Source: Candidatus Aminicenantes bacterium
GTDB taxonomy: Bacteria; Acidobacteriota; Aminicenantia; Aminicenantales; Aminicenantaceae
Direction: 5' to 3'
Length of the DNA stretch: 64,000 nucleotides
Assembly: GCA_014727835.1 (NCBI GenBank)
Contig: WJMT01000102.1
Location: forward strand, 660 to 64,659
Of this stretch, positions 4,588 through 45,961 are shown in pieces. Within the stretch, counting starts at the first letter, position 1, and every line of letters begins with the position of its first letter. Made by a program: the position numbers and the translations under genes. Below the pieces are notes generated by a model. That model was given only the letters and a program-made list of their open reading frames with translations, was not told where the DNA came from and did no database searches.

Positions 4588-4700
4588 ATTGTTGTACAAA
4601 GTCCTTGTCTTGTTTAGAAAAAGCTCCCCCAATTTGATGCAATAATCCGTCCAGTTTCTCGTCTATAGAAGTGAAAATGTTTTTTGAAAGGAGAACAAAG

Positions 4701-4901
4701 ATGTTCGAGAGATGCATGTTGAAAATGTTCAACCAAAGAGCCGGAGCCAAAGAAAGCAAGCCAGATGAGATCCTCAAACACCTCAACATTGAGTCAGGTG
4801 AAAGCATCGCGGATATCGGTTCCGGGGGCGGCTATTATACTTACCGGTTTGCCGAAAAAGCAGGAGAAGAGGGCCGTGTCTATGCTGTTAATCTCATTTG
4901 A
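4701..4901 (+). pseudogene. remnant (N-terminal about 66 aa) of a class I SAM-dependent methyltransferase
   Basis: AGGAG precedes the ATG at 4701. SAM-binding motif I plus post-I (IADIGSGGGYYTYRFAEKAGEEGRVYAVNLI) is followed immediately by TGA. None of the three downstream frames continues a methyltransferase fold. Confidence 0.5.
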
Positions 4902-5025
4902 GATAGGGAGACGCCCTTTTTTATTTCAAGGATATTTTTCAGAACAGTTTTCAAAACCCATAACACTTTGTTAAAATAGAGCTCTGAAATGAATGTGCGT
5001 TTTGGATTGTGGCGGAGACAAAGAC

Positions 5026-7716
5026 ATGTCTGATCATTCAGCAGACCAATGGTGGGCCCGTTCCTCTCAAGAGGCCCTCAAACAATTTGATGTCTCTCAG
5101 GAAAATGGGCTCAAAGCAGAGCAAGTCAAAAAAAGAAAAATAAAGTATGGGCTCAACCAGCTCAGAGAAACCAAAAAGAAGAGTGTATGGGTGATCTGGG
5201 CAAATCAGTTCAAGAGCCTCATTATCGGACTGCTGCTCGCAGCTGCAGTGCTGTCTTTTGCTTTTCATGAAATTGTGGAAGGGATCGCTATATCTGCTGT
5301 GATCATTATCAATGCGCTGATGGGCTTTTTTACAGAATGGAAAGCAGTCCGCTCCATGGAAGCACTGCAAAAATTAGGAGGAGTGACCGCAAGAGTCCGC
5401 CGTCACGGAGAGATACAGGAGATCCAGGCCGAAGAGATCGTGCCCGGTGACATTGTGATCGTAGAGGGGGGAGATGTGGTGACTGCGGATGTCCGTTTGT
5501 TTGAAGCTTCCAAGCTTCAAGCAGATGAATCCCCACTCACCGGTGAATCTGTTCCGGTGAGCAAAACCGTAGAACCTGTGAGCAAGGAAGCCACCTTAGC
5601 GGAAAGACCAAACATGCTCTTCAAAGGGACTGCTGTAACCAGAGGGTCAGGGGAAGGACTGGTAGTTAGCACAGGAATGGAGACAGAGTTGGGACAGATC
5701 TCAGCTCTGGTTGAAGAGGCCGGAGAAGAGACCACTCTGCTGGAAAAACAGCTCAACAAACTGGGACACAAACTGATCTGGATCACTCTCGCTATCGCAT
5801 TATTGGTCGCGGCCAGCGGCATCATGGCGGGGAAGGCCACCTTTTTGATGGTTGAGACAGCGATTGCTTTGGCTATTGCCGCCATTCCTGAAGGACTGCC
5901 CATAGTGGCGACCATTGCTCTGGCCAGGGGCATGTGGCGAATGGCTAAGAGAAATGCTTTGATCAACCGGCTTTCCGCAGTGGAAACACTGGGCTCCACC
6001 AACATCATTTTCACAGACAAGACCGGCACAATGACTGAGAACCGGATGACCTTGACTCAAATGGAATTGGAATCCGGAACTGTCAACATCAATGAACGAT
6101 TTTCCAAACAAGGAGAAAATATTGATCCCTCCGAAGATTCCCTTTTGAAACTGGCTTTGGAAACAGGACTGCTGTGCAACAATGCCTATCTTCCCGAAAA
6201 TAGGACATTTGATGAAGGCCAGGCTGTGGGAGAACCTCTGGAAATCGCCTTATTGGTGGCTGCAGCCAAGGCAGGACTTTCCAGGGATGACATTGTGGAG
6301 AATTTACCAGAAGAGCGGGAGGAAGCCTTTGATTCTGACGTGATGATGATGGCCACTTTTCACAAACAGGAACAAAAGTATCGAGTTGCAGTCAAAGGTG
6401 CGCCAGAAAAGGTCCTGGATGCCTGTTCTTCTATCCATACTCAGGATGGCCCTGTTGAAATGAAGAATGAGGCCTTTGAGCAGTGGGTAAAAAAGAACAA
6501 GAAAATGGCTGAAGAAGGACTTCGGGTTCTGGCTCTAGCCACCAAGACTGTTGACTCAGTAAAGACACCGCCATATCAAGACCTTGTTTTTGTGGGATTG
6601 GTGGGCATGCTGGACCCACCAAGGCCCCAAGTCTCTGAAGCGATCCTGTCTTGTAAAAAGGCTGGGATCAGGACCATTATGGTTACCGGAGATCAGGAAA
6701 TCACAGCCCGAAAGATTGGATTGGAAGTCGGATTAGTGAGCGAGGACAATGCCGAGGTAATTCATGGAAGAGAAATCCAGAGAATGGGAGAATTCAAGAG
6801 TGAAGAACAGATTCAGCCTCTACTTCAGGCATCCATTTTTGCCCGGATCAGTCCCAAGCAGAAGCTCGACCTGATTGATTTGTACCAAAAACAAGGAAAC
6901 ATTGTGGCCATGACAGGCGATGGAGTCAACGATGCCCCTGCTTTGAAAAAAGCGGATATTGGTGTGGCTATGGGAAAGAGAGGGACTCAAGTGGCCCGGG
7001 AAGCCTCGGACATGGTGCTCAAAGATGATGCCTTTTCCACTATTGTATCTGCTGTGGAACAGGGACGGGTCATTTTTAACAATATACGAAGGTTTGTGAT
7101 CTATCTCCTTTCCTGCAACATCAGTGAGATTTTAACAGTCTTTCTGGCTTCTATGGTGAATGCTCCTCTTCCCATTCTGCCTCTGCAGATATTGTTTCTG
7201 AATTTTGTGACAGATGTGTTTCCTGCACTGGCTCTGGGAGCCGGGGAAGGAGATCCTGATATCATGACTCATCCTCCCCGGGACTCAAAGGAACCCATCA
7301 TCACGCGCAGCAGATGGATTATGATAGGGGGATATGGATTCATGATCACGGCTTCAGTTCTCGGGGCGTTGGCTTTAGCCATGGTTTGTTTGGGTATGGC
7401 CCAAGAGCGCGCAGTGACCATTTCTTTTCTGACGCTTGCTTTTGCTCAACTGTGGCATGTTTTTAATATGAGGGACAGGGGTTCAAACTTTTTTGTCAAT
7501 GACATCACCCGCAACCTCTATGTTTGGGGGGCCTTGTTTCTGTGCGTGGCTCTTCTGATCATGGTGGTCTATATTCCTGTGCTGGCAGCGGTTTTAAAGC
7601 TGGTCGATCCTGGATTCAAAGGATGGGCCTTGGTCTTTGGGATGAGTTTACTGCCTTTTTTTATAGGGCAGATTTCCATTGCGGCCCCAAGCATAGAGAA
7701 GCAGAAATCAGGATGA
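5026..7716 (+). CDS. cation-transporting P-type ATPase (P2-type, Ca2+/Mg2+-like)
   Basis: DKTGTMT phosphorylation motif, PEGLP, TGDGVNDAPALKKADIG hinge, cation-ATPase N-terminal segment, about 10 TM helices. Start taken at ATG 5026 (MSDHSADQWW) with GGAGA upstream. Confidence 0.92.
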   Translation: MSDHSADQWWARSSQEALKQFDVSQENGLKAEQVKKRKIKYGLNQLRETKKKSVWVIWANQFKSLIIGLLLAAAVLSFAFHEIVEGIAISAVIIINALMGFFTEWKAVRSMEALQKLGGVTARVRRHGEIQEIQAEEIVPGDIVIVEGGDVVTADVRLFEASKLQADESPLTGESVPVSKTVEPVSKEATLAERPNMLFKGTAVTRGSGEGLVVSTGMETELGQISALVEEAGEETTLLEKQLNKLGHKLIWITLAIALLVAASGIMAGKATFLMVETAIALAIAAIPEGLPIVATIALARGMWRMAKRNALINRLSAVETLGSTNIIFTDKTGTMTENRMTLTQMELESGTVNINERFSKQGENIDPSEDSLLKLALETGLLCNNAYLPENRTFDEGQAVGEPLEIALLVAAAKAGLSRDDIVENLPEEREEAFDSDVMMMATFHKQEQKYRVAVKGAPEKVLDACSSIHTQDGPVEMKNEAFEQWVKKNKKMAEEGLRVLALATKTVDSVKTPPYQDLVFVGLVGMLDPPRPQVSEAILSCKKAGIRTIMVTGDQEITARKIGLEVGLVSEDNAEVIHGREIQRMGEFKSEEQIQPLLQASIFARISPKQKLDLIDLYQKQGNIVAMTGDGVNDAPALKKADIGVAMGKRGTQVAREASDMVLKDDAFSTIVSAVEQGRVIFNNIRRFVIYLLSCNISEILTVFLASMVNAPLPILPLQILFLNFVTDVFPALALGAGEGDPDIMTHPPRDSKEPIITRSRWIMIGGYGFMITASVLGALALAMVCLGMAQERAVTISFLTLAFAQLWHVFNMRDRGSNFFVNDITRNLYVWGALFLCVALLIMVVYIPVLAAVLKLVDPGFKGWALVFGMSLLPFFIGQISIAAPSIEKQKSG

Positions 7717-20719: not shown

Positions 20720-21994
20720 TTAGTTTGATTGTTTATGGCCGGATTTGAGTCTTTGGTATTCTTTTTTCATTTGATCCAGGTCTTGGGCGAGCTCAAAAAA
20801 TCCGTGCCAGTGGGCGTAGTCCTGGCCCATCATAGCTGTCCCCATCCTTGCTCTGCGGCCCTCATGGTGCCACAGGTGATAGAAAATCAACTCGATTTCA
20901 TCGTCCCATGGATTGTCCTTTGTGATGAGATTGAGTTCATAAAGCTCGTCTATCATGGTTTTAGCAGGCTTGTAGTATTTTTCATTATAAGTTTGGATGG
21001 CAAGGTCGTACTGGTTGTAGAATCCATTGACCCATGAAGGGCTGTGGCAGCTCAAACAGACTTTTTTCATCATCAATCGGTTTTTTTCCCAATCAGCAGT
21101 GCGCACACTGAGAGGCCGTTCAGCCTGCCAGGAAAGACGCAGAGAAATGTTATGGGAGGTGGAAAGGTCGCTGATTCCAGACATATGACAGACAGCGCAG
21201 GTGGGAGCGGAATAATCTCCGGGTTCCCAGGCATCTGGGGCGCTGTCCCAGGTCCAGCTGTCTCCCTCAGCACGAGTTCGCTTGCCGTGTTTGGATTCCT
21301 CCCAGATTTCGATTTGGGGATGATCAGGACCCATATGGCAGGCTCCGCAGGTGTCTCCTTTTCTGGCTTCCACTATGCTGAAAAGATGACGGGTGTGACA
21401 GGAGGTGCAGTTTCCCGAAGAACCGTCAGGATTGACTCTGCCGATTCCTTCCTGGGGATAGTGATCTCCTCCAGGACGTCCCTTGTCAAATTCAATGATT
21501 CCGCCGTGGCATTGGACACATCCTGTGGCTTCGGGTGCTGTAGAACCTTTGCCCTCCCAGTCTATGGACATGCTTTTCAGTTTCTTGATGGAATCATATC
21601 CAATGGCATGGTCACTGGCCGCAAACTGTTCTGCCTCAACAGGATGACAGCGTGAGCAGTCCTTTGGAGTGGGTACAGAGGTGATGTGGACTTTTGTGCG
21701 GCGAAGGCCTTGGCACTGAAAGGAGTCTGTTTCATTCTTATCTGCTTGATGGCAGTCTAAACAGGTCACATTAGAGCGGCCATGGAGGCTGTTCTTCCAG
21801 TCAAGCACAATGAGCGGGTTTTGGTCTTGATGGCATGTGATGCAGTCTTTGCTGATTTGGCTGATTCCGCGGTTGACTTCAATGACTTTTTGGTTGAGGG
21901 ATCCCATGGTCTCTTGTTTTGAACTCAATGTCCAACCCATAATACCGAGGGATATGGACAAGATGACTATGAGCACATAATGAATTTGTTTCAT
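20720..21994 (-). CDS. octahaem cytochrome c of the hydroxylamine oxidoreductase (HAO) family, short form
   Basis: Eight CxxCH sites: CITCH, CLDCH, CSRCH, CVQCH, CTSCH, CGACH, CAVCH, CLSCH. HAO-like segments CGACHMGPDHPQIEIWEESKHG and WHHEGRRARMG..DYAHWHG. N-terminal membrane anchor or signal. GAGGAGG SD. Confidence 0.88.
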   Translation of the reverse strand: MKQIHYVLIVILSISLGIMGWTLSSKQETMGSLNQKVIEVNRGISQISKDCITCHQDQNPLIVLDWKNSLHGRSNVTCLDCHQADKNETDSFQCQGLRRTKVHITSVPTPKDCSRCHPVEAEQFAASDHAIGYDSIKKLKSMSIDWEGKGSTAPEATGCVQCHGGIIEFDKGRPGGDHYPQEGIGRVNPDGSSGNCTSCHTRHLFSIVEARKGDTCGACHMGPDHPQIEIWEESKHGKRTRAEGDSWTWDSAPDAWEPGDYSAPTCAVCHMSGISDLSTSHNISLRLSWQAERPLSVRTADWEKNRLMMKKVCLSCHSPSWVNGFYNQYDLAIQTYNEKYYKPAKTMIDELYELNLITKDNPWDDEIELIFYHLWHHEGRRARMGTAMMGQDYAHWHGFFELAQDLDQMKKEYQRLKSGHKQSN

Positions 21995-22029
21995 AGCTCC
22001 TCCTCATTGAAACAAGGAATTTTTTCTAT

Positions 22030-22587
22030 TTATTCATAAGATTTTTTAATGTGTTTGTCTGTGAACAGAATGGGGGTGTTGTAGTGAACCATTTTCTCAT
22101 GACAGTCCCAGCACTTTTTTTGGATTGTGCTGTTCTGCCATTCACGGTGGGCAAGGAAACCTCCACGATTGATACTGGGAGGAGTGAGGTCTTGATGGCA
22201 TGTGATGCAGGCGTCTTCAAAAAGGTAATTCTGTTTGGTGTGGGTTTTTTCTTCCCAACTGATTTTTGAAGGATCTCCAAGATAATGAACCACCACATCT
22301 CGAAGCCCGGAATAGGCTTTGTAGGAATAGCGGGAAAGACCAGAAGCTGGCAGGTGACAGTCCACACAGTCTGCCACCACCCCATAGGGATTGACGGAAT
22401 GGCTTGACATTTCCCAAGTCTTCACCCGCACCTGCATTTCATGGCATCTCCCACAGAATGTGTTGGTCCCGGTGAGATTAAAGCTGAGATGAGTGAAGCC
22501 GATAAAGAACAGAGTCACAAATATCCCCACTAGAAACGTGACCACATACTTCCATTTTTTGATGAGCCAGCGAAAAAAGCGCATCAT
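22030..22587 (-). CDS. NapC/NirT/NrfH-family tetrahaem membrane quinol dehydrogenase
   Basis: N-terminal TM helix plus four CxxCH sites (CGRCH, CVDCH, CITCH, CWDCH). Lies 35 nt upstream of the HAO-like gene on the same strand. Confidence 0.88.
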   Translation of the reverse strand: MMRFFRWLIKKWKYVVTFLVGIFVTLFFIGFTHLSFNLTGTNTFCGRCHEMQVRVKTWEMSSHSVNPYGVVADCVDCHLPASGLSRYSYKAYSGLRDVVVHYLGDPSKISWEEKTHTKQNYLFEDACITCHQDLTPPSINRGGFLAHREWQNSTIQKKCWDCHEKMVHYNTPILFTDKHIKKSYE

Positions 22588-22736: not shown

Positions 22737-23270
22737 ATGAAACCCAGAGGCCCTTTAATGATAGAACACCGTCTTATAGAGAAAATGATATCTTTGATCG
22801 AAAATGAGATCTCCAAAATTGCAGATACTGGAAAAACATACCCTGATTTCATTGATACGGCTGTGGATTTCATCCGCACCTATGCTGACCGCACTCACCA
22901 CGGCAAAGAGGAAGACATCTTGTTTCGCGAATGTAAAAAAAAGACCATGTCCCCACAAGACACCCAGGTTATGAATGAACTCATTGATGAGCATAAATTC
23001 GGAAGAAAAGTGGTGGGTGAACTGGTGAAAGCCAGACAAGAATACGTTAAAGAGGGCCGCAGCCTGGAAACCATTGCAGACAAACTCCAGACTTTGGTTG
23101 ATTTTTATCCCAAACACATCAAAAAAGAGGATGATGTGTTTTTTCCTCATTCTGAAAAGTACTTCTCAGCAGATGAACAGCAGCTCCTGCTCCAAGAGTT
23201 TTGGGAGTTTGACAAAAACATGATCCATGAGAAGTACAAAGCAGTGGTTGAACAGCTTAAAAACAAGTGA
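22737..23270 (+). CDS. hemerythrin-like (HHE cation-binding) domain protein
   Basis: AGGAGG SD. His/Glu/Asp ligand pattern: MIEHRLIE, HHGKEEDILF, DEHKFG, HIKKEDDVFF. Confidence 0.8.
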   Translation: MKPRGPLMIEHRLIEKMISLIENEISKIADTGKTYPDFIDTAVDFIRTYADRTHHGKEEDILFRECKKKTMSPQDTQVMNELIDEHKFGRKVVGELVKARQEYVKEGRSLETIADKLQTLVDFYPKHIKKEDDVFFPHSEKYFSADEQQLLLQEFWEFDKNMIHEKYKAVVEQLKNK

Positions 23271-24394
23271 TTTATAAAAAGCTGGCCCGTCATCTGGATG
23301 ACCTTCCAGGGGGATTTCCGGAAACCAAAAGCGGAGTGGAACTTCGCATTCTGCGCCGGATGTTCACTCCGGAGCAAGCCCGGCTTGCACTCAAACTCAC
23401 TTTAATCCCAGAGCAAACTGACGTGATCGCAAAGCGGGCCAAAATCCCTGTCAAAAAGGCATCGGATCTGCTTGAACAGATGGCTAAAAAAGGCCTCATC
23501 TACCGTTTGAAAAGGAAAGGCCAGCCGGCTCGCTTTATGGCGGTTCAGTTTGTCATCGGGATCTGGGAGCTTCATGTCAATGACCTGGACCCGGATCTGA
23601 TCCGGGATTTCAATGAATACGCACCAACCTTATTCGATTTTGATGAGTGGAAGAAGGCGCCCCAGCTGAGAACCATTCCGGTTGAACAGAGTATCAGGGC
23701 AGATTTGGAGGTCCTCCCCTATGAGGATGCAGCGAAGCTGATCCAAAGCCGGTCCAAATTTTTGGAAGCTCCCTGTATCTGCAGAAAAGAACGCCGTATT
23801 ATGGGGGAAGGATGCGGCAAAACAGAGGGGAACTGTTTGATTATGGGAGTGGGAGTGGAGATATACAAGAATGTGGGGATTGGAAAAGAGATCAGTCAAA
23901 AGCAAGCCCTGGAGCTGATCAAAAAAGCAGATAAAGAAGGATTGGTTCTTCAGGCCAGTTTTTCGAAAAAGATCGCCAATATATGCTGCTGCTGCGGCTG
24001 CTGCTGTCAGGTTCTCAAAAGTTTTAAAAAGCATGCCATGCCTTCCAGTCTGGTAGCATCAGCTTTTGTTGCTCAGTGGGATCCGGATGCGTGCACAGGC
24101 TGCGGAGAGTGTGTGGATCGTTGCCAGATGGATGCAATCCGAATGGATGATGGTATAGCTGTATTGGATGCCGACAAATGCATTGGCTGCGGCTTGTGTG
24201 TTTCTTCCTGCTCCAGCCAGGCTCTCTTTTTAAAAAGAAAGCCCGGCCCTGAGAGTCCCAAAATTCCGGAAAAATTGACCCATGCGGCGGTCAAAAGACT
24301 TCGAGTGAGAGGGAAACTCGGACGGGGAAAAGTCAGTTCGCTGCTTTTGCGCTCCCAGAAAGCCCGGCCCTTTTCAAAGGGGAAAAGGGCCTAA
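23267..24394 (+). CDS. Fe-S protein: N-terminal helical domain, Cys-run region, and a C-terminal 2x[4Fe-4S] ferredoxin domain
   Basis: GTG start overlaps the upstream stop (GTGA). CTGCGECVDRC and CIGCGLCVSSC dicluster motifs. Additional Cys blocks PCICRKERRIMGEGCG..GNC and ICCCCGCCCQ. Confidence 0.8.
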   Translation: MIYKKLARHLDDLPGGFPETKSGVELRILRRMFTPEQARLALKLTLIPEQTDVIAKRAKIPVKKASDLLEQMAKKGLIYRLKRKGQPARFMAVQFVIGIWELHVNDLDPDLIRDFNEYAPTLFDFDEWKKAPQLRTIPVEQSIRADLEVLPYEDAAKLIQSRSKFLEAPCICRKERRIMGEGCGKTEGNCLIMGVGVEIYKNVGIGKEISQKQALELIKKADKEGLVLQASFSKKIANICCCCGCCCQVLKSFKKHAMPSSLVASAFVAQWDPDACTGCGECVDRCQMDAIRMDDGIAVLDADKCIGCGLCVSSCSSQALFLKRKPGPESPKIPEKLTHAAVKRLRVRGKLGRGKVSSLLLRSQKARPFSKGKRA

Positions 24395-37362: not shown

Positions 37363-37686
37363 CTAACCTGGATTGACCAAAATATCACGGTATTTTTTAT
37401 GTTTCCTTACATACATGGCCACATAAGAACAACTGGGGATCACAGAAAAATTGTTTTCCCGGGCATAGTCCAGTGCGGTTTGAGTGAGTTTGTCGGCGAT
37501 GCCTTTATTGCGGAATTCCGGAGGCACATACACATGAGCATAGTCCAATATTCTTGGTTCTGGTTTTTCATAGGAAAGATAACCGATTTTTTTGTCCAGC
37601 CTCACGGCAAACCGCCTTGCCGTACGTTCATGACGCACAATCATTGACTGGAGATCAAAATGCATCATTTTAGAGTCACGATTCAT
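37363..37686 (-). CDS. small GNAT-like acetyltransferase (YjdJ-type single domain)
   Basis: HVYVPPEFRNKGIADKLTQTALDYARENNFSVIPSCSYV matches the short GNAT_acetyltran family pattern. Start overlaps the sdhB end by 11 nt. Confidence 0.75.
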   Translation of the reverse strand: MNRDSKMMHFDLQSMIVRHERTARRFAVRLDKKIGYLSYEKPEPRILDYAHVYVPPEFRNKGIADKLTQTALDYARENNFSVIPSCSYVAMYVRKHKKYRDILVNPG

Positions 37687-38395
37687 GTTTTTTGATGTCC
37701 TTTTTGGTGAGATTGATGAGTTTTGTGACTTTTATATTCCGAGGGCAGACCTGAGTGCAGTTGAAATAATTTTGGCAGGACCAAACACCGTTCGGAGAAT
37801 TCAGTTCAGAAAGTCTTTGTTCAAAACCGTCATCTCTGGAATCAAACAGAAAACGGGCAGCCTGGACAATGGAGGCCGGCCCGATGTATTGAGGATTTTC
37901 CTTTTGGATAACAGGGCAAGCAGAATAACAGGAAGCACAGAGAATGCATTTGGTGGCATCATCTATTTTTTTTCTTTGTTCAGGACTCTGCACGCTTTCC
38001 TTTGAGACGGCCTTTTTTTTGGTGATGAAAAAAGGTTTGACCTGCCGGTAGCTGTTGATAAATTTCTTTTGGTCCACCATGAGGTCTCTTTGAACTGGCA
38101 GGGTGCGCAGAGGTTCGATCCGAATGCAAGCACCTTCCTTGTCTGCAATGGTTTTGATCAGAGTTTTGCAGGCAAGTCTCTCCTTTCCGTTCACTACAAT
38201 GGCATCTGATCCGCATACTCCGTGGCCGCAGCTTTTTCTGAAGCTGAGAGAAGGATCGAACTTTCTTTTGATATCCATAAGCACATCAAGAAGCCGGTCG
38301 TTTGGATCACCATTGACTTTGTATTTTTGGTAAAAAGGTTTTTTATTTTTTTCTGGATTGGAGCGTTTGATCTCAATGTTGAGTTTCATAATCAA
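37676..38395 (-). CDS. sdhB: succinate dehydrogenase/fumarate reductase iron-sulfur subunit
   Basis: 2Fe-2S CGHGVCGSD..C, 4Fe-4S CILCASCYSACP, 3Fe-4S C..CTQVCP. Confidence 0.92.
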   Translation of the reverse strand: MIMKLNIEIKRSNPEKNKKPFYQKYKVNGDPNDRLLDVLMDIKRKFDPSLSFRKSCGHGVCGSDAIVVNGKERLACKTLIKTIADKEGACIRIEPLRTLPVQRDLMVDQKKFINSYRQVKPFFITKKKAVSKESVQSPEQRKKIDDATKCILCASCYSACPVIQKENPQYIGPASIVQAARFLFDSRDDGFEQRLSELNSPNGVWSCQNYFNCTQVCPRNIKVTKLINLTKKDIKKHES

Positions 38396-38410
38396 TGATA
38401 AACATCCTTC

Positions 38411-40147
38411 CTAATACACACGGGGCTTGGGTTTCCATTTGTCGATATCAACGGATTTGGCCCCAAACGAGACCCGGTCATCTTTGAGCCAGGACAAGGT
38501 GTGTTTGAGCCAATTCTCGTCATCCCTCTCCGGATGATCCTCCCGGGCATGAGCTCCTCTGGATTCTTTTCTTTCTAAAGCGCAGGATACAGACAAATAA
38601 GCAAGATCAAGGAGGTTGCCTAGTTCTAATATCTCGAGCAGATGCGTGTTGAACGGCTTGCTGTCATCCTGGAGCTGTACTTTTTTATAGTCCTCCCTGA
38701 GATCTTGAATCAGGGCCAGGGCTTTTTCCATATGTTTTCCGTTTCGGAAAACACCCGCGTTTTGGGTCATGGTTTTCTGTAATTTCAAACGAATTTCTTC
38801 AGGACAAGCTCCTTTCCCTCTTTGTTTGAGTTTTTCGATCTGCGCTTCAATTTGCTTGGCTCTTTTTTTTGGAAAATCAGCAAAATCAGCATCTTTGACA
38901 AACTCTGCCATCTCAATGCCGGCTCGTTTCCCGAACACAATCAAGTCCACCAGACTATTTGTGCCCAGACGATTGGCCCCATGGACTGATACACAGGCGC
39001 ATTCCCCTGCTGCATACAGTCCTTCATAAAAAGACCCTTTTCCATCTGCGGCTACCTTTCCGTTTTGGTCAGTAGGGATCCCTCCCATAGCATAATGGGC
39101 TGTAGGCTGGACAGGAATGGGTTTTTCCGCTGGATCGATCCCCAGATAAGTCCTGCTGAAATCCGCAATTTCCGGCAGTTTCTCTTCAATGACATCTTTT
39201 CCTAAATGAGTGGCATCGAGATGAACAAAGTCATCAATAGAGCGGTCCCCTTTGATTCCTTTTCCCCTTCGGATCTCTTTCATGATAGCCCGGGCCACCA
39301 TATCACGAGGAGCCAGGTCGAGAAGCTTGGGTGCGTACTTCTCCATAAACCGGTCTCCATCCTGGTTTCTAAGGATGCCTCCTTCTCCTCTCACTCCTTC
39401 GGTGATCAGGATGCCCATTCCATAGATTCCGGTGGGATGAAATTGAAAAAATTCCAGGTCTTCCAGAGGCACCCCTTTTCTCAGGCAAAGGGCGGGACCG
39501 TCTCCGGTGTTGGCATAAGCATTGGATGTGATGCGGAACATGCGTCCGAATCCTCCGGTGGCAAACAAAATAGCTTTAGCTTTGAAGGTGTGGACTTCTC
39601 CTGTGGCCAGCTCCAGGGCTAGGATTCCTCCGCACTTTTTTTGATCAAAAACCAGGTCAACAACCTGGAATTCATTAAAAAAGGACACCTGGTTTTTAAT
39701 GCACTGCTGATAAAGGGTTTGAAGGATCATATGTCCTGTTCTGTCTGCTGCATAACAAGCTCTGCGGACTGGGGCTTCCCCGAAATTCCGGGTGTGGCCT
39801 CCGAATCGTCTCTGATCGATCAAGCCCTCAGGAGTTCGATTGAACGGGAGGCCCCGGTTTTCAAGGTCATAGACCGCTTGCACAGCTGTTTCGGCCAGGA
39901 TGCTGGCCGCCTTCTGGTCCACCAGATAGTCTCCCCCTTTGACTGTATCAAAAGCATGCCACTCAGGTTTGTCTTCCTCCACATTCCCCAGTGCTGCGCT
40001 GATGCCCCCCTGTGCAGCTCCTGTATGAGAGCGGATGGGATAGAGCTTGGAGAGAACCGCTGTTTTGGCTTTTTTGCTGGCTTCCAGAGCCGCATACAGT
40101 CCGGCTCCCCCGGCTCCGATGATGATGACTTCATATTCGTGGATCAA
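38411..40147 (-). CDS. sdhA: succinate dehydrogenase/fumarate reductase flavoprotein subunit
   Basis: FAD fold IIIGAGGAGLYAA, plus HPTG, RGEGG and HYAMGG. The track ORF begins at a GTG at 40204. I prefer the TTG at 40147 because AGAAGG lies 6 nt upstream and a promoter-like element sits inside the longer version. Confidence 0.92.
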   Translation of the reverse strand: MIHEYEVIIIGAGGAGLYAALEASKKAKTAVLSKLYPIRSHTGAAQGGISAALGNVEEDKPEWHAFDTVKGGDYLVDQKAASILAETAVQAVYDLENRGLPFNRTPEGLIDQRRFGGHTRNFGEAPVRRACYAADRTGHMILQTLYQQCIKNQVSFFNEFQVVDLVFDQKKCGGILALELATGEVHTFKAKAILFATGGFGRMFRITSNAYANTGDGPALCLRKGVPLEDLEFFQFHPTGIYGMGILITEGVRGEGGILRNQDGDRFMEKYAPKLLDLAPRDMVARAIMKEIRRGKGIKGDRSIDDFVHLDATHLGKDVIEEKLPEIADFSRTYLGIDPAEKPIPVQPTAHYAMGGIPTDQNGKVAADGKGSFYEGLYAAGECACVSVHGANRLGTNSLVDLIVFGKRAGIEMAEFVKDADFADFPKKRAKQIEAQIEKLKQRGKGACPEEIRLKLQKTMTQNAGVFRNGKHMEKALALIQDLREDYKKVQLQDDSKPFNTHLLEILELGNLLDLAYLSVSCALERKESRGAHAREDHPERDDENWLKHTLSWLKDDRVSFGAKSVDIDKWKPKPRVY

Positions 40148-40172
40148 TGTCAGCCTTCTTAAGAATGCTTCC

Positions 40173-40201
40173 ACTCTAGAGGCATCTGCTGTTTTTGTCA
40201 A
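40173..40201 (-). promoter_or_regulatory. sigma70-like promoter for sdhAB
   Basis: Minus strand: TTGACA (40201-40196), 17-nt spacer, TAGAGT (40178-40173). Confidence 0.35.
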
Positions 40202-40350
40202 CACCTATTCGGTTGACCTCAAGACAATCCTCTGGGCTTGACTTTTGATTGTTTTGCATTTAATCTTCCAGCGGGGATAGGCAAAAACATTCCCGATTGA
40301 GGACAAAACCTGATTTCTTTAAAAACAACTGTGTCATAGAGGATTGCACC

Positions 40351-41766
40351 ATGAGAACAGAAAAAGACTCCCTTGGGGAGAAGAAGGTTCCCCAGGAGGT
40401 GTATTATGGAATACAAACACAGCGGGCTCTGGATAATTTTCCCATCAGCGGATTGAAACCGCATTCCGCGATGGTGAAAAGTATGGTTCTGATCAAAAAA
40501 GCAGCTGCACTGAGCCATTATGAGCTGGCAAGGATGGGTCAGACCAAAAAAGAAGCGATTGTCAAAGCCTGTGATGAAATTCTTGAGGGAAAGTTGAGAG
40601 ACCAGTTTGTGGTAGATGTGTTTCAGATGGGAGCTGGCACCTCTTTCCATATGAACTGTAATGAAGTTATTGCCAACCGGGCAGAGGAGATTTTGGGAGG
40701 AAACAAGGGGGAATACCGGATGATTCATCCTAACGACCATGTGAACATGGGGCAGAGCACCAATGATGTGTTTCCCACTACCATGCGTTTGGCTGCTCTT
40801 TTTCTGCTCAAAAGCAAGCTGTGGGATTCCCTTGAGGACTTAATCCAATCTTTTTACCGGAAAGCAGATGAATTTGACCGCATTTTGAAATCAGGAAGGA
40901 CTCATCTTCAGGATGCAGCACCTGTAAGACTGGGACAGGAGTTTATGGCCTATGGGAAGGCGATGGAAAAGACAAAAAATTTCCTTAAATATGCGTCTGA
41001 ATCCCTGTTAGAACTCGGGATCGGAGGAAGTGCTGTGGGCACGGGACTGAACACATTACTGGGATACAGGGAAAAAGTGGTGAAAACATTATCAGATTTA
41101 ACAGGTTTTCCTTTGGTCCAGTCAGAGGATCTCTGTGAAGCCATGCAGAGCATGAGGCCTCTGACAGAAATATCTTCGGCTCTCCGGAATGTGGGAATTG
41201 AAATGATAAGAATATCCAATGACCTGCGTCTGCTTTCTTCAGGGCCTCAAACATGTATAGCAGAAATAAAACTTCCTGCTGTGGCACCCGGGTCTTCCAT
41301 CATGCCCGGTAAAGTGAATCCTTCCATACTGGAGATGATGAACATGGTTGGATTTCAGGTCATGGGATGTGACACAGTTGTCATCACCGCAGCACAAGCA
41401 GGTCAGCTAGAGGTCAATGTGATGATGCCGGTGATCGCATTCAATGTGAATTTTATGATCGAGATTCTGGGGAATGCTCTCAGGCAGGTTAAGGGCAGAT
41501 GCGTGGATGGGATTAAAGCAGACCCGGAGACATGCAGAGCTTATGCGGAAAAAAGCATGGGAATGGCCACAGCTCTGTCTCCTTACATCGGTTATCAGAA
41601 AGCAGCAGAGATTGCAAAGGAGGCTTTGTCTCAAAAAAAGACATTGATACAGGTGGTTGAAGAGAAAAACCTGCTGAGCAGGGAACAGATCAAACGAATT
41701 TTAGATCCGGAGAACATGACGAAACCGGGGGTGGCGGGCCAGAAAAAAGAAGATGAAAATTCATAG
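40351..41766 (+). CDS. aspA: aspartate ammonia-lyase-like enzyme (class II fumarase/aspartase superfamily)
   Basis: GSSIMPGKVNP signature. KGEYRMIHPNDHVNMGQSTND, SNDLRLLSSGP and AAQAGQLEVNVMMPVI resemble E. coli AspA more than FumC, from my recollection of both sequences. ATG 40351 has GAGGA upstream; the track's TTG at 40297 is rejected. Confidence 0.8.
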   Translation: MRTEKDSLGEKKVPQEVYYGIQTQRALDNFPISGLKPHSAMVKSMVLIKKAAALSHYELARMGQTKKEAIVKACDEILEGKLRDQFVVDVFQMGAGTSFHMNCNEVIANRAEEILGGNKGEYRMIHPNDHVNMGQSTNDVFPTTMRLAALFLLKSKLWDSLEDLIQSFYRKADEFDRILKSGRTHLQDAAPVRLGQEFMAYGKAMEKTKNFLKYASESLLELGIGGSAVGTGLNTLLGYREKVVKTLSDLTGFPLVQSEDLCEAMQSMRPLTEISSALRNVGIEMIRISNDLRLLSSGPQTCIAEIKLPAVAPGSSIMPGKVNPSILEMMNMVGFQVMGCDTVVITAAQAGQLEVNVMMPVIAFNVNFMIEILGNALRQVKGRCVDGIKADPETCRAYAEKSMGMATALSPYIGYQKAAEIAKEALSQKKTLIQVVEEKNLLSREQIKRILDPENMTKPGVAGQKKEDENS

Positions 41767-41804
41767 GCCTATTTCTATAAATATTGATTGAGGAGAGATC
41801 AAAC

Positions 41805-43580
41805 ATGAAAAAATGGAAGTGTACAGTCTGTGGGTACATATATGATGAGGCCAAAGAAAAAACTCCTTTTGAAGAGCTTCCGGATGACTGGACATGCCCT
41901 CAATGCGGGGCGCCGAAATCAGCATTTATCCCAATAGAGGGAACAAAAAAAGAAGACAAAGCAGAGGCCAGCGTGGCTGAGAAAATCGTGGAACAGCTGA
42001 TCGCCTATGGAGTGAGCCGTGTGTTCGGGATCCCGGGACATTCAAACTTGCCTTTAACAGAGGCTATACGGAAAAATCCGGATATGGACTTGATCTTAAC
42101 CCGTCATGAAGAATCCGCTGCATTCATGGCATCTGCACATGCCAAGCTCACGGGTGAACTCGGAGTCTGCATGTCCATTGCAGGGCCTGGAGCCACTAAT
42201 CTCATAACCGGTATTGTGGATGCAGCAACAGACAGGGCTCCTGTTCTAGCCTTGCTGGGACAGGTCCCCAAAGTATTTCTGGGAAGTGAATCACTTCAGG
42301 AGATTGCAGAAGTGGATATTTTCAAAACCTTTTGTGTTTATGCAGAGCTGATATCCAATCCGGGTCAGGCCTTGAAAGTATTGAACCAGGGGATTAAAAA
42401 AGCTTATGCAGCTCCTGGCCCTTCTGCTTTGAGCCTCCCCACGGATGTTCTGGAGGAATCGCTGGGGGAAAAGATTTGGGAACCCAAGCATCATCTGTTT
42501 TGTCCGGACCTCTCTCCCGGAGACGAGGTAAAAAAAGCAGCTGAATTGATAAAAAAAAGCAAGCGGCCCCTTCTTTTTGCCGGATGGGGAGCCCGTGGTT
42601 GCGGTTCAGAACTCATAAAGCTAGCCAGACATATAGGGGCACCTATTGCCACCACATCAAGAGCAAAAGGAGTGGTTCCAGAATCCGATGAACTTGTTTT
42701 GGGAGTGCTGGGTTCCATCGGGAACAGTTTTGCTCCAAGAATCGTGGCCCGATCTGACTTGATCATCATCTTGGGCAGCGGATTCAGGCAGCGTCAGCTG
42801 GTCCCGGATGTGGATGTGATCCAGGTTGATATCGATGCCACCAGGGTGGGCAAGACATTTCCTGTGAAGCTGGGCATAGTGGGAGATGCCTCGCGGGTGG
42901 TAAAAATGCTGAACCGGGAAACTGAAGAAAGAAAGATGGAGGAGGAATTTAGAAAGGCAGTGAATAAAGCAAACAAGGACTATCAGGCGGTTCTCAAAAA
43001 AGATGCTGAAAACAAACAAAAACCCATTTATCCCGGTGCTGTAGTCCAAGCTCTGAAAAGACAGCTGGCAGACGATGCGCTCATCTGTTCCGATGTGGGA
43101 GATCACACCTACTGGTTCTACAAAAGATTTGTCTGTGAAGCCCAGCAAACACTTTTTTGTGCCAATATGGCGGGAATGGGCTTTGGGATCCCAGCTGCCA
43201 TTGCCTGTCAGATGGAACAACCCAATCGCCAGGTGGTGGCTTATGCAGGAGACGGAGGATTTGGTATGGTGGGGATGGAATTCACCACAGCTGTGCACAA
43301 CAGACTTCCTCTCACGGTGGTGGTCCTCAATGATGGGAAACTGAAAAACATCAAAAAAGAACAGGAGGAATACGGGTATCCTGAATATAGAGTCAGTTTT
43401 CCCAATCCAAACCTGGCGGATATGGCCTCCTCGTGTGGAGGTTTGGGGATCAGGGTGAAAGAGCCTCAACAACTGGATAAGGCGTTGAGAGAAGCTCTGG
43501 ATTCGTCCTTGACTGCTTTAGTGGAAGTCATTGTTGATCCGAATGAATACATTTCAGCGGTCCGCCGGCAAGAGATGTGA
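41805..43580 (+). CDS. rubredoxin domain fused to a pyruvate oxidase/acetolactate synthase-family TPP enzyme
   Basis: GAGGAG SD. N-terminus [12 protein letters not shown]...[12 protein letters not shown] is a rubredoxin CxxCG...CPxCG motif. Then [33 protein letters not shown] and GDGGFGM...LNDG (TPP-binding motif). Lies 38 nt after the aspA-like gene. Confidence 0.88.
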
Positions 43581-43694: not shown

Positions 43695-43919
43695 ATGCCT
43701 CAAGTCAATGACACCCAAGAAAATTTGCAGAAATGCATTTGTGGTCAGTGTCCTTCATACAATCAATGTATGGGAGATAAGACCGAAGGACTGTATTGTG
43801 CAAGAGGAAAAAGCTCTTGTGAATTTGAAAAGAACGGTTGTGTGTGTGGAGCCTGTCCCCTGACTTCAGAATATGGACTTGAACAGCTGTATTACTGCGA
43901 GATCGGAAGAGACGAATAA
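43695..43919 (+). CDS. small cytoplasmic Cys-rich protein, DUF2769-like
   Basis: GAGGGAGGG SD. 74 aa with no signal peptide. Cys skeleton CICGQCPSY..C..YC..C..GCVCGACP..YYC. Confidence 0.7.
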   Translation: MPQVNDTQENLQKCICGQCPSYNQCMGDKTEGLYCARGKSSCEFEKNGCVCGACPLTSEYGLEQLYYCEIGRDE

Positions 43920-43931
43920 ATCCAAATCAAC

Positions 43932-44648
43932 ATGAGTCTGTTTCTTTTTAAATCCATGCTGGCTGTTGTTTTTTTTGCCGCAGCTGTAACTGCTGTCATA
44001 AGTATGCTGACCCTAATGGGAAGGCAGGAAAAAAAGATCAGCTCAAAAGGATTGAGACAAATCCATAGAGCTGCAGGCTACACCTTTTTCATCTTTTTGA
44101 TAGGGATTTCCATCATTTGCATTCATTATGTGGCCAAAGTGGGGGATGCCCTTTCATTCAGGGCTTTCACACACAGTGTATTAGCGCTGGCTCTTTTTGT
44201 CATTTTAGTGCTCAAGATGTCTATTGTGCGGTTCTTTAAAGGATTTCTCAAAATCGCTCCTCAATTGGGGATGATGGTTTTTGTGTTGGCCTTTTTGGTT
44301 TTTTCCACTTCAGCCGGATTTTTTTTCCTCATGACCTTCAGTTCTGTCAAGAGTCAAGAGGAGACATCAATGCAGACACCGGTTTCTGAGAATGGCCCTA
44401 TAGAGAGAGGCACCACCCTGTTCCAGAATAAATGTATGTCCTGTCACTATCCGGATAAGGAAAAAAACAAATCAGGCCCCGGGCTCAAGAATCTATTTCA
44501 AAAAGAAAAACTTCCTTTCAGCAACAAACCTGTTACAGAAGCGAACGTACTCGGTCAGCTGCAGAGGCCTGCTCTGGTCATGCCTTCCTTCCCTTCTCTT
44601 TCAGAGCAGGAACAGGCCGACCTGATTGCTTATTTAAAGACACTTTAA
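43932..44648 (+). CDS. four-TM membrane protein fused to a C-terminal monohaem class I-like cytochrome c domain
   Basis: Four hydrophobic helices carry His residues (QIHRAAGY, CIHYVA, FTHSVLA). C-terminal domain has CMSCH, GPGLKN and LVMPSF. Starts 12 nt after the upstream gene. Confidence 0.75.
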   Translation: MSLFLFKSMLAVVFFAAAVTAVISMLTLMGRQEKKISSKGLRQIHRAAGYTFFIFLIGISIICIHYVAKVGDALSFRAFTHSVLALALFVILVLKMSIVRFFKGFLKIAPQLGMMVFVLAFLVFSTSAGFFFLMTFSSVKSQEETSMQTPVSENGPIERGTTLFQNKCMSCHYPDKEKNKSGPGLKNLFQKEKLPFSNKPVTEANVLGQLQRPALVMPSFPSLSEQEQADLIAYLKTL

Positions 44649-44694
44649 AAATATCATAACTTTGCATTCAAATATGAATAAAAATGGAGGCAAC

Positions 44695-45120
44695 ATGAAA
44701 AGAAGGGAATTTTTTGAAAAAAGTGCTTGTAGCGTGGCGGCTCTGGTCTTAGCCAAGTTCGGGCTGTCTGCATCCGGCTTGTCAGATGAAGAAATGAGCA
44801 GAGAAGAATATGTGAAGAAACTGTTGATGGACAAAATGGGAATGTCTGAAGAGGAAGCTAAAAAAGAAATTGAAAAGATGAAGGAAAAGCTCCCCAAAGT
44901 CAAGGAAATGTGCATTTGTAAGGACTGTCCTACTTATGTGGGTGAGGAGACCGAAGTGGGTTTTTGTCACCCACTGATCGGAAAGAGCAAGGTCATTACC
45001 AAAGAAAACGGCTGCAACTGCCCCACATGCCCTGTGTATAAGAAGATGGAGCTTAAAAACGGTTACTACTGCACCCGGAAGTCTGAGATGGAACAGGAAA
45101 TGGCCAAAAAGGAAAAATAG
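44695..45120 (+). CDS. Tat-signal-bearing DUF2769-like Cys-rich protein
   Basis: GGAGG lies 4 nt before the ATG at 44695. MKRREFFEKSACSVAALVLAKFGLSASG carries a twin-arginine motif. An E/K-rich linker follows, then CICKDCPTY..FC..GCNCPTCP..YYC. Confidence 0.7.
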   Translation: MKRREFFEKSACSVAALVLAKFGLSASGLSDEEMSREEYVKKLLMDKMGMSEEEAKKEIEKMKEKLPKVKEMCICKDCPTYVGEETEVGFCHPLIGKSKVITKENGCNCPTCPVYKKMELKNGYYCTRKSEMEQEMAKKEK

Positions 45121-45322: not shown

Positions 45323-45961
45323 ATGGCCCAAGATGACAAACCCATTATCAAGCCCACTCGAAACGGCCCTTTTCTGGTGAAAAATGTAAAGCAATTTGAA
45401 AATTCGAAAGGTGAGGATTTGAAGCCTCCTTCAAACATGATGCTCTGCCGGTGTGGAGGTTCCAAGAACAAGCCTTTTTGTGACGGGGCTCATTTGAAAA
45501 ACGGATTTGAAGATAAAAAGGACCCCAGAAGAGTCAAAGATAAAAAGGATGATTATGTGGGCAGAGATATCACCATCCATGATAACCGCGGTGTATGCTC
45601 TCACAGGGAGCACTGCATCAATCATGCACCCAAAGTTTTCCGCAGAAGAGGAAAACCGTGGATCGACCCGGATGCTCAGGATGCGGAAGAGACAGCAAGA
45701 GTTATTGAGATGTGTCCTTCAGGAGCCCTGAGCTACACCAAAGACGGGGTCCTTCATGAGGATTGGAAACAAAAGCCAGCTATCCTCATTTCCAAAGATG
45801 GGCCTTACGATGTCCATGGTTGTGTCGAGCTGGATGATCCGGAGGGAAACAAACCTGAGGCTGAGGACCACTACACGCTCTGCCGGTGCGGCCATTCCAA
45901 GAACAAGCCGTTTTGTGACGGCCGCCATTGGCGAGTCCGGTTTAAAGACCCCAAGAACTAA
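45323..45961 (+). CDS. iron-sulfur protein: CDGSH domain, divergent mono-cluster ferredoxin-like domain, CDGSH domain
   Basis: CRCGGSKNKPFCDGAH and CRCGHSKNKPFCDGRH (CDGSH 2Fe-2S motifs). The central segment GVCSHREHCINHAP...MCPSGAL resembles the divergent 4Fe-4S mono-cluster family. AGGAGA SD. Confidence 0.85.
   Translation: MAQDDKPIIKPTRNGPFLVKNVKQFENSKGEDLKPPSNMMLCRCGGSKNKPFCDGAHLKNGFEDKKDPRRVKDKKDDYVGRDITIHDNRGVCSHREHCINHAPKVFRRRGKPWIDPDAQDAEETARVIEMCPSGALSYTKDGVLHEDWKQKPAILISKDGPYDVHGCVELDDPEGNKPEAEDHYTLCRCGHSKNKPFCDGRHWRVRFKDPKN

Follow-up and report, generated by a model that had tools for sequence, protein, structure and literature searches.

What use would a thiamine diphosphate (ThDP) enzyme have for a rubredoxin? 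The question is raised by a gene at 41805..43580 (+) of a 64,000-nt stretch of DNA from Candidatus Aminicenantes bacterium (contig WJMT01000102.1, positions 660 to 64,659; the whole stretch is called the window below), which encodes a rubredoxin and, on the same polypeptide, a three-domain enzyme resembling pyruvate oxidase (POX), PoxB and pyruvate:quinone oxidoreductase (PQO). The fusion belongs to a widespread and uncharacterised family that is a variant of the POX/PQO-type ThDP flavoenzymes. With moderate confidence we propose that it is a soluble 2-oxoacid (probably pyruvate):rubredoxin oxidoreductase dependent on ThDP and flavin adenine dinucleotide (FAD), a proposal for which we infer the substrate, the FAD and the electron sink.

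A rubredoxin joined to a three-domain ThDP enzyme

The fusion gene is complete, with 591 codons plus a stop, and lies in an open reading frame (ORF) that our ORF call on the window placed at 41784..43580 (+), in a single frame without interruption. The start was assigned to the ATG at 41805; homologous fusions likewise open with MKKWKC, and a Shine-Dalgarno-like GAGGAGAG (41790..41797, +), read directly from the sequence, stands 7 nt before this ATG. The product is identical to the NCBI entry 'hypothetical protein GF421_10540, Candidatus Aminicenantes bacterium'. Pfam matches divide it into a rubredoxin domain (PF00301, aa 1-44; 41805..41936, +), a PYR domain (TPP_enzyme_N, aa 57-169; 41973..42311, +) containing E102 in an RHEE motif and LQE at 164-166, a middle domain presumed to bind FAD (TPP_enzyme_M, aa 242-369; 42528..42911, +) and a PP domain (TPP_enzyme_C, aa 430-575; 43092..43529, +) with GDGGF at 482-486 and ND at 509-510; the three TPP_enzyme models each matched at E 1e-34 or better. 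A K/E-rich linker (aa 45-56; 41937..41972, +), variable in sequence and fixed in length, separates the rubredoxin from the enzyme. An initial annotation, made from the sequence alone, had described a complete N-terminal rubredoxin metal site and a full three-domain enzyme with RHEE and GDG...N motifs, and we recovered all four cysteines, the three Pfam domains and the quoted motifs; its estimate of a roughly 20-aa linker was too long, the measured length being ~12 aa.

The PF00301 match spans aa 3-41 and scored 46 bits (cut-off, 23; E 5e-12). C6, C9, C31 and C34, in two CxxC(G) knuckles, occupy the Fe-ligand positions, the aromatic core is retained (W4, Y11, Y13, F22, W29, F41), and the other rubredoxin hallmarks (G10, L25, P26, P32, G35) are present. 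Residues 1-56 by themselves matched solved PDB rubredoxins at E 1e-15, from which the sole difference is an 8-residue loop deletion that also occurs in the 45-aa rubredoxins 6rxn and 6nw0. By its sequence the N-terminal domain is a genuine short-loop rubredoxin, with predicted Fe binding. In the AlphaFold2 model of the fusion (pLDDT 81, pTM 0.80) the rubredoxin domain scored 80-87, and aa 47-52 fell below 50. No signal peptide and no hydrophobic segment was found at the N-terminus of the fusion, because the rubredoxin itself forms the start of the protein, and a soluble, cytoplasmic enzyme is the best explanation.

More than 100 clusters (90% identity) share the order rubredoxin, TPP_enzyme_N, _M and _C and are 55-90% identical to the window protein. 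A genome scan with one genome per GTDB species gave 154 relatives, and in the 80 loci retained the match extends over query residues 1 to ~588, except where a contig end truncates it; our own ORF calls in 76 loci served for neighbourhood and cysteine counts. About 36 of the 80 records are bacterial (Aminicenantes/Acidobacteriota, Eisenbacteria, WOR-3 and a few others) and about 44 archaeal, the latter with 51-56% identity to the window protein. The archaea include cultured Methanococcoides (vulcani, alaskense, seepicolus and sp. FTZ1) and Methanohalophilus, as well as ANME-2, Methanoperedens, Bathyarchaeia, Thor-, Heimdall-, Hod- and Promethearchaeota, Thermoplasmata and Nitrososphaeria. The hosts are anaerobes. 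A frameshift or assembly artefact was ruled out by the recurrence of the single ORF in >100 clusters and 80 genome loci, so that the fusion, kept in independent assemblies, is one gene and not a frameshifted pair. Public names for the family vary between 'pyruvate oxidase', 'thiamine pyrophosphate-binding protein', 'rubredoxin' and 'hypothetical protein', and our literature search found no description of a rubredoxin-POX fusion, in agreement with the initial annotation, which knew of no characterised example. The architecture thus turned out to be common, with all four cysteines in 74 of the 76 loci, and at the same time uncharacterised.

The remaining two of these 76 loci are cut by contig ends. 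The cysteine motif spans 29 residues in 73 of 74 loci, and in 57 of 74 the last cysteine stands 40 residues from the G[IV]PG motif (overall range, 37-43). As a measure of conservation in 73 members of the family we took the share of positions conserved at 90% or more. In the rubredoxin domain (43%) it came closer to the value for the PYR domain (44%) than in the middle (24%) and PP (35%) domains, and the linker had no such position (0%). These shares support the view that the rubredoxin domain is under selection as strong as that on the catalytic PYR domain. Because the linker varies in sequence and not in length, the rubredoxin would have a defined docking place that it must reach, as the constant length suggests.

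Several irregular relatives turned up beside these. One close homologue that at first appears to lack the rubredoxin (P0109; L100:2780-3010) keeps only its second half, which runs on from the end of the ZIP transporter gene upstream; this reflects either a natural deletion or a misassembly. In an isolate, Methanohalophilus sp. RSK (L069:9965-11770), our ORF calls divide the fusion into two successive ORFs, of 397 and 202 aa, which may be a frameshift or a pseudogene. Ten proteins of ~1080-1190 aa (P0126, P0142, P0148, P0154, P0159, P0165, P0173, P0178, P0180 and P0186), in which 2-4 separate stretches match the query, look like tandem or doubled ThDP-enzyme fusions.

The ThDP part and the proposed reaction

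Residue by residue, the ThDP part retains much of what is found in PoxB. The catalytic Glu, E102, aligns with PoxB E50, and LQE 164-166 with F112-Q113-E114 (FQE) of PoxB; the F112 position is Leu in the aligned Aminicenantes and Eisenbacteria sequences and in the more distant homologue P0120, and Phe in the three archaeal orthologues aligned. GDG 482-484 and N509 make up the ThDP-Mg motif, and E519 stands at the position of PoxB E469, where IlvB, IlvI and Gcl carry Gln. E102, GDG...N(D) and E519 do not vary within the family. Five middle-domain motifs (GWGAR 260-264, TTSRAKG 283-289, GVLGSIG 300-306, GSGFRQR 324-330 and QVDID 340-344) show conservation of 95% or more across the family and align with their equivalents in PoxB and acetohydroxyacid synthase (AHAS). 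The family has its own signature, LKNIKKEQ 513-520, near-invariant as LKNI.KEQ. At the other end of the protein, the fusion stops 10 aa past the residue aligned to PoxB 531, from which PoxB runs on for 41 aa, and for this reason it has no counterpart of the C-terminal membrane-binding region of PoxB, which we take to be an amphipathic membrane- or lipid-binding peptide.

POX-type proteins ranked first in comparison after comparison. The best NCBIfam model was 'pyruvate oxidase' PRK08611 (439 bits vs a cut-off of 742); PRK09124 (PoxB) scored 348 bits vs 792, PRK06546 364 vs 893 and spxB 327 vs 638, the archaeal and actinobacterial 'pyruvate dehydrogenase' models reached 385 and 364 bits, ahead of AHAS, and the acetolactate synthase (ALS)/AHAS models 337-363 bits. 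The Methanococcoides orthologue repeated this ranking, POX-type first with cut-offs unmet; in the sister clades pyruvate oxidase/pyruvate dehydrogenase models likewise came first, and with cut-offs checked no NCBIfam model claims the fusion family. A phmmer search of PDB listed PoxB (1.6e-79), then HKA synthase BbmA, Corynebacterium glutamicum PQO and Lactobacillus plantarum POX, then AHAS, and in Foldseek PoxB, PQO and L. plantarum POX superposed best on the AlphaFold2 model (TM 0.77-0.88). By BLASTP the order was PoxB (33% identity, 255 bits), IlvI (30%, 239 bits), IlvB (29%), Gcl (25%) and Oxc (23%). In a neighbour-joining tree of 147 sequences (200 bootstraps) the bacterial and archaeal fusion proteins formed one clade with 100% bootstrap support. 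Its sister group (67%) mixes rubredoxin-fused proteins (P0123 of the Dehalococcoidia type, P0125 of the Methanomicrobiales type, P0131 and P0155) with unfused ones (P0124, P0127 and others).

The reaction that we propose would start with the addition of a 2-oxoacid, most likely pyruvate, to ThDP activated by Glu102, followed by loss of CO2. The two electrons of the resulting hydroxyethyl-ThDP enamine would be taken up by the middle-domain flavin and leave singly through the Fe(Cys)4 centre of the fused N-terminal rubredoxin, which, on its short linker of fixed length, would substitute for the quinone/membrane-anchor exit of PoxB. Reduced rubredoxin would then serve soluble partners: in the window, as synteny suggests, the Cys-rich DUF2769 and CDGSH proteins; in relatives, a rubredoxin- or DUF2769-tagged protein resembling glutamate synthase (GltS-like) with FMN and [3Fe-4S], or a rubredoxin-tagged protein resembling ferredoxin:thioredoxin reductase (FTR-like) together with a thioredoxin-like protein. 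The direction of electron flow, the substrate and the identity of the acceptor are what we infer here. A 2-oxoacid:rubredoxin oxidoreductase with a hard-wired acceptor had also been the reading of the initial annotation; the architecture and the POX affinity agree with it, and FAD binding and redox turnover enter it as predictions.

Candidate redox partners in the gene neighbourhood

Downstream of the fusion in the window lie four same-strand genes. A free-standing DUF2769 protein of 74 aa with 10 Cys (43695..43919, +; Pfam, 64 bits) begins 115 nt downstream, as expected from the earlier placement of the fusion just upstream of DUF2769 and cytochrome genes. It is followed by a membrane protein with DUF6529 helices and a C-terminal cytochrome c domain (CMSCH; 43932..44648, +; domain search), by a second DUF2769 protein of 152 aa with an N-terminal Tat-like MKRREFF, assigned by motif only (44662..45120, +), and by a 212-aa CDGSH-Fer4_19-CDGSH iron-sulfur protein (45323..45961, +; domain search). 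A scan for a promoter or terminator between the fusion and DUF2769 gave nothing above shuffled expectation.

In each of the 76 loci, neighbours up to 3 kb from the fusion were counted after the ORFs had been clustered, annotated and re-scanned with hidden Markov models (HMMs). DUF2769 was found in 27 of the 76, in bacteria and archaea, mostly directly adjacent and on the same strand. The membrane cytochrome c (21/76) and a protein combining a rubrerythrin-type rubredoxin with an FTR-catalytic domain, followed by a CPHC thioredoxin-like protein (17/76), occurred in Aminicenantes-type bacterial loci only. CDGSH-Fer4_19-CDGSH genes accompany the fusion in Methanococcoides, Thermoplasmatales and the window (10/76), with orthologues directly upstream of it in Methanococcoides (L050, L059, L062, L063, L066) and Thermoplasmatales (L044). 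A rubredoxin-tagged GltS-like gene was a neighbour in 9 of 76 loci, seven from the count and two more (L072 and L076) in which the gene and the stop of the fusion overlap. Genes for 2-oxoacid:ferredoxin oxidoreductase (OFOR) adjoin the fusion in the archaeal loci L041, L042, L071 and L074, and a peroxiredoxin and a DsbH-like thioredoxin lie next to the Dehalococcoidia-type relative. The earlier suggestion that electrons could feed the neighbouring Cys-rich and cytochrome proteins therefore held in part: the DUF2769 link is conserved and the cytochrome link is lineage-specific.

The GltS-like partner is a 495-aa protein with a full rubredoxin and a Glu_synthase FMN domain. The protein has a C-x5-C-x4-C motif, which we take to be the [3Fe-4S] motif of glutamate synthase; its gene adjoins the fusion in records of archaea, WOR-3 and Actinomycetes. 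The closest unfused relative (P0124, 41% identity) is encoded directly downstream of a Glu_synthase-domain protein of 411 aa, which is without the N-terminal ~100 residues and shares 45% identity with the rubredoxin-tagged form. This arrangement of an unfused POX-like enzyme directly after an untagged 411-aa protein was seen at L086:4485-7641 and also in L087, L101 and L102, and the L086 pair has genes for an ammonium transporter (Amt) and P-II nearby, a hint of a link with nitrogen assimilation.

How the two partners are tagged was shown by a metagenome scan that used the sister clades as seeds. Unfused P0124-type enzymes are paired with an untagged GltS-like protein (L101, L102), fused P0125-type enzymes with a rubredoxin-tagged one (L124, L125, L129), and fused P0123-type enzymes with one that has an N-terminal DUF2769 (HMM E ~1e-15) and no rubredoxin (L107:5664-7157, L109:3926-5491, L116:5660-7174) or, in L115, with a partner 1.6 kb away that is tagged with a 2x[4Fe-4S] ferredoxin. 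No mixed pair of a tagged and an untagged protein occurred among the 15 adjacent tagged pairs, the 3 untagged pairs and the ferredoxin-tagged one, from which it follows that the association of ThDP enzyme and GltS-like protein spans four subfamilies. By these pairings DUF2769 would behave as a module interchangeable with rubredoxin.

What DUF2769 itself may be is indicated by its eight invariant Cys, arranged in the alignment as 2x CxCxxCP...C, and by the company it keeps. The two paralogues of the window flank the cytochrome c gene; the 74-aa copy is without the Tat-like signal, and the Tat-like motif of the 152-aa copy suggests export with a bound cofactor. In unrelated contigs (L097-L099, ~4302-5225) DUF2769 comes 22 nt after a 225-aa FNR-like NAD_binding_1 module, and it thus appears to pair with different flavoprotein reductases; elsewhere it precedes a CDGSH protein. 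Taken together, these features would suit a redox carrier or domain that is small and binds metal. The AlphaFold2 model of DUF2769 (pLDDT 67) was too low in confidence for a fold search, and a literature search found nothing functional on the domain.

A wider and more speculative possibility, which we hold tentatively, is that the rubredoxin-POX-like enzyme supplies the electrons in a reductase system of two components, not described so far, in which pyruvate or another 2-oxoacid replaces NAD(P)H or ferredoxin as reductant. Electrons may then run from FAD through the fused rubredoxin and a DUF2769 or rubredoxin module to the [3Fe-4S]/FMN centres of the GltS-like protein, toward which the ThDP enzyme, by analogy, may play the part that GltD plays toward GltB; in Aminicenantes the rubredoxin-tagged FTR/thioredoxin pair may be fed by the same source, and DUF2769 may be a small metallo-redox carrier of a new kind, or a docking domain, exchangeable with rubredoxin. 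If so, the system would be widespread among methylotrophic methanogens, ANME, Bathyarchaeia and Asgard archaea.

On the upstream side of the fusion, an aspartate ammonia-lyase gene (40351..41766, +; NCBIfam NF008909, 640 vs a cut-off of 510) ends 38 nt away, its stop at 41766 bearing out the gap initially reported. Functional coupling to it was rejected, same-strand adjacency occurring only in the window and in L001. Further upstream, SdhA and SdhB genes (37676-40204, -) both pass the NCBIfam cut-offs and have no adjacent SdhC/D anchor gene; a GNAT acetyltransferase and a POT-family transporter follow them on the same strand. SdhAB-like genes also occur near the fusion in the Asgard loci L070 and L074, and Sdh and fumarase-type genes near it in a few Asgard loci on the opposite strand; coupling to SdhAB was likewise rejected, the association being limited to a few Asgard loci, on the other strand, and inconsistent. 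Elsewhere in the window, ORFs at 20720-22587 (-) contain CxxCH haem motifs (CITCH, CGRCH), which suggests multihaem cytochromes, and a Cys-rich ORF at 23267-24394 (+) includes a CCCCGCCC run.

Weighing the readings against each other and against known systems

A number of observations weigh against a 2-oxoacid:rubredoxin oxidoreductase. N515, invariant in the family, replaces F465 of PoxB and F479 of L. plantarum POX, which we assume to be the Phe between ThDP and FAD, and binding of FAD by the middle domain is suggested by motif retention; the initial annotation had asked for FAD-binding residues there, and what was found is that the Gly-rich motifs are kept and this Phe is not. All NCBIfam POX/PoxB models stay below cut-off (439 vs 742 at best), the BLAST margin of PoxB over AHAS is small (255 vs 239 bits), the ThDP carboligase HKA synthase 8x3x is among the top Foldseek matches, and the whole set joins the PoxB group before AHAS, Gcl and Oxc at only 37% bootstrap. 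Because the cut-offs are unmet, the AHAS margin is small and the node stands at 37%, the affinity of the ThDP part to POX/PQO is consistent but not decisive; of the alternative posed at the outset, POX-like or ALS-type carboligase, the first is favoured insofar as POX, PoxB and PQO rank first throughout. As to partners, the whole 64-kb window contains no GltS-like, rubredoxin-FTR or thioredoxin-like ORF. Since c-type cytochromes normally have their haem domain outside the cytoplasm, that of the neighbouring cytochrome is presumably extracytoplasmic, and the fusion has no signal peptide. Typical rubredoxin potentials lie near 0 mV, high for reductions of the thioredoxin or glutamate synthase type, and the proposed electron sinks are uncertain for that reason.

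Some of these points would suit a non-redox carboligase or decarboxylase, akin to AHAS, HKA synthase or glyoxylate carboligase, with a vestigial flavin and a rubredoxin that is structural, oligomerising or metal-sensing. AHAS stands close to PoxB (239 vs 255 bits by BLASTP; 337-363 bits for ALS vs 439 for POX in NCBIfam), HKA synthase and AHAS rank high in Foldseek, the electron-transfer Phe is lost, an AHAS-like 'LGM' motif occurs in sister clades, and DVGDHTYW of the fusion appears to resemble the AHAS motif DVGQHQMW. Yet the rubredoxin has its full aromatic core, more than a zinc ribbon would, and is conserved like the catalytic domain; E519, of the POX type, is retained where AHAS and Gcl have Gln; the recurrent neighbours are redox proteins, several of them rubredoxin-tagged; and a one-electron carrier would be of no evident use to a carboligase. 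We regard this explanation as unlikely. In a reversed flow, the rubredoxin would take electrons from DUF2769, CDGSH or ferredoxin and deliver them to the flavin, to hold it in the reduced state needed for activity or to drive a reductive ThDP/flavin reaction; we think this very improbable. In its favour, other fused enzymes take in electrons through a rubredoxin domain, the tags of the GltS-like and FTR-like neighbours plausibly do the same for those proteins, and DUF2769, which elsewhere directly follows an FNR-like reductase module, is possibly a reduced carrier. Against it, the POX/AHAS family is not known to include a reductive reaction, making pyruvate by reductive carboxylation requires potentials far below that of rubredoxin, and the closest characterised relatives are all oxidative.

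The smallest chance, a slight one, goes to a pyruvate oxidase linked to O2 or stress, whose rubredoxin would be a redox switch or a route to the detoxification of O2 or reactive oxygen species when pyruvate:ferredoxin oxidoreductase (PFOR), an O2-sensitive enzyme, fails. Such a role would accord with the anaerobic hosts, with the rubredoxin-FTR and thioredoxin-like proteins (17/76), with the peroxiredoxin and DsbH-like thioredoxin beside the Dehalococcoidia relative, with the CDGSH proteins, and with rubredoxin being the usual donor to rubrerythrin, superoxide reductase, flavodiiron and peroxiredoxin enzymes. Among the 76 loci, however, no rubrerythrin, superoxide reductase or flavodiiron gene adjoins the fusion, the most widespread partners (DUF2769 and the GltS-like protein) are not known stress proteins, and the explanation is largely a special case of the 2-oxoacid:rubredoxin oxidoreductase with a particular sink.

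If the fusion is such an oxidoreductase, the pyruvate oxidase family, whose electrons go to O2 or quinones, would gain a protein Fe centre as its third outlet, and anaerobes an O2-tolerant, CoA-independent alternative to PFOR. Metabolic reconstructions of Asgard archaea, Bathyarchaeia, ANME and Aminicenantes label the fusion 'pyruvate oxidase', 'acetolactate synthase-like' or just 'rubredoxin'. The co-variation of tags would provide the first functional hypothesis for DUF2769, and suggests an electron donor for the orphan archaeal 'FMN-binding glutamate synthase family' proteins. Since it is present in cultured Methanococcoides, the fusion is experimentally tractable.

Among known systems, Escherichia coli PoxB (3ey9/3eya) and C. 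glutamicum PQO (9ev3-9ev6), both EC 1.2.5.1, have the same three-domain ThDP/FAD fold and are the best matches to the fusion in sequence and fold (33% identity, TM 0.77-0.88). The fusion keeps the catalytic Glu, GDG...N, the E469 equivalent and the middle-domain Gly motifs of PoxB; unlike PoxB and PQO, it has an N-terminal rubredoxin, lacks the C-terminal membrane peptide and carries Asn for F465, and its predicted acceptor is a protein-bound Fe centre instead of a quinone. The POX of L. plantarum and Aerococcus (EC 1.2.3.3; 1pox, 1v5e) shares the fold and, like the fusion, is soluble and without a membrane anchor, and the L. plantarum type has a similar 'IK.EQ' motif following the ThDP-binding loop; the fusion differs from this type (26% identity) in the loss of the F479 equivalent and the added rubredoxin, and because its hosts are anaerobes O2 is an unlikely acceptor. 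AHAS and other carboligases (IlvB/IlvI, Gcl and HKA synthase BbmA) have the same fold and domain order, 25-30% identity and the FAD-type middle motifs, but AHAS carries Gln where the fusion and POX carry Glu, and the carboligases are without rubredoxin and score below the POX models; the flavin of AHAS is not redox-active in catalysis.

With PFOR/OFOR the likeness is a functional analogy only, in that ThDP is used to oxidise a 2-oxoacid and electrons leave singly for a soluble carrier by way of iron centres within the enzyme; the PFOR architecture, with [4Fe-4S] clusters, no flavin, CoA dependence, low potential and reversibility, is unrelated. A rubredoxin relay fused to a flavo- or Fe-S enzyme is known from flavorubredoxin NorV, the rubredoxin-bearing ferredoxin:disulfide reductase of Methanosarcina and the rubredoxin-hydroxylamine reductase 7e0l. 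None of these enzymes is ThDP-dependent, and in the known fusions of this kind rubredoxin serves electron entry, whereas the port that we propose for it here is an exit.

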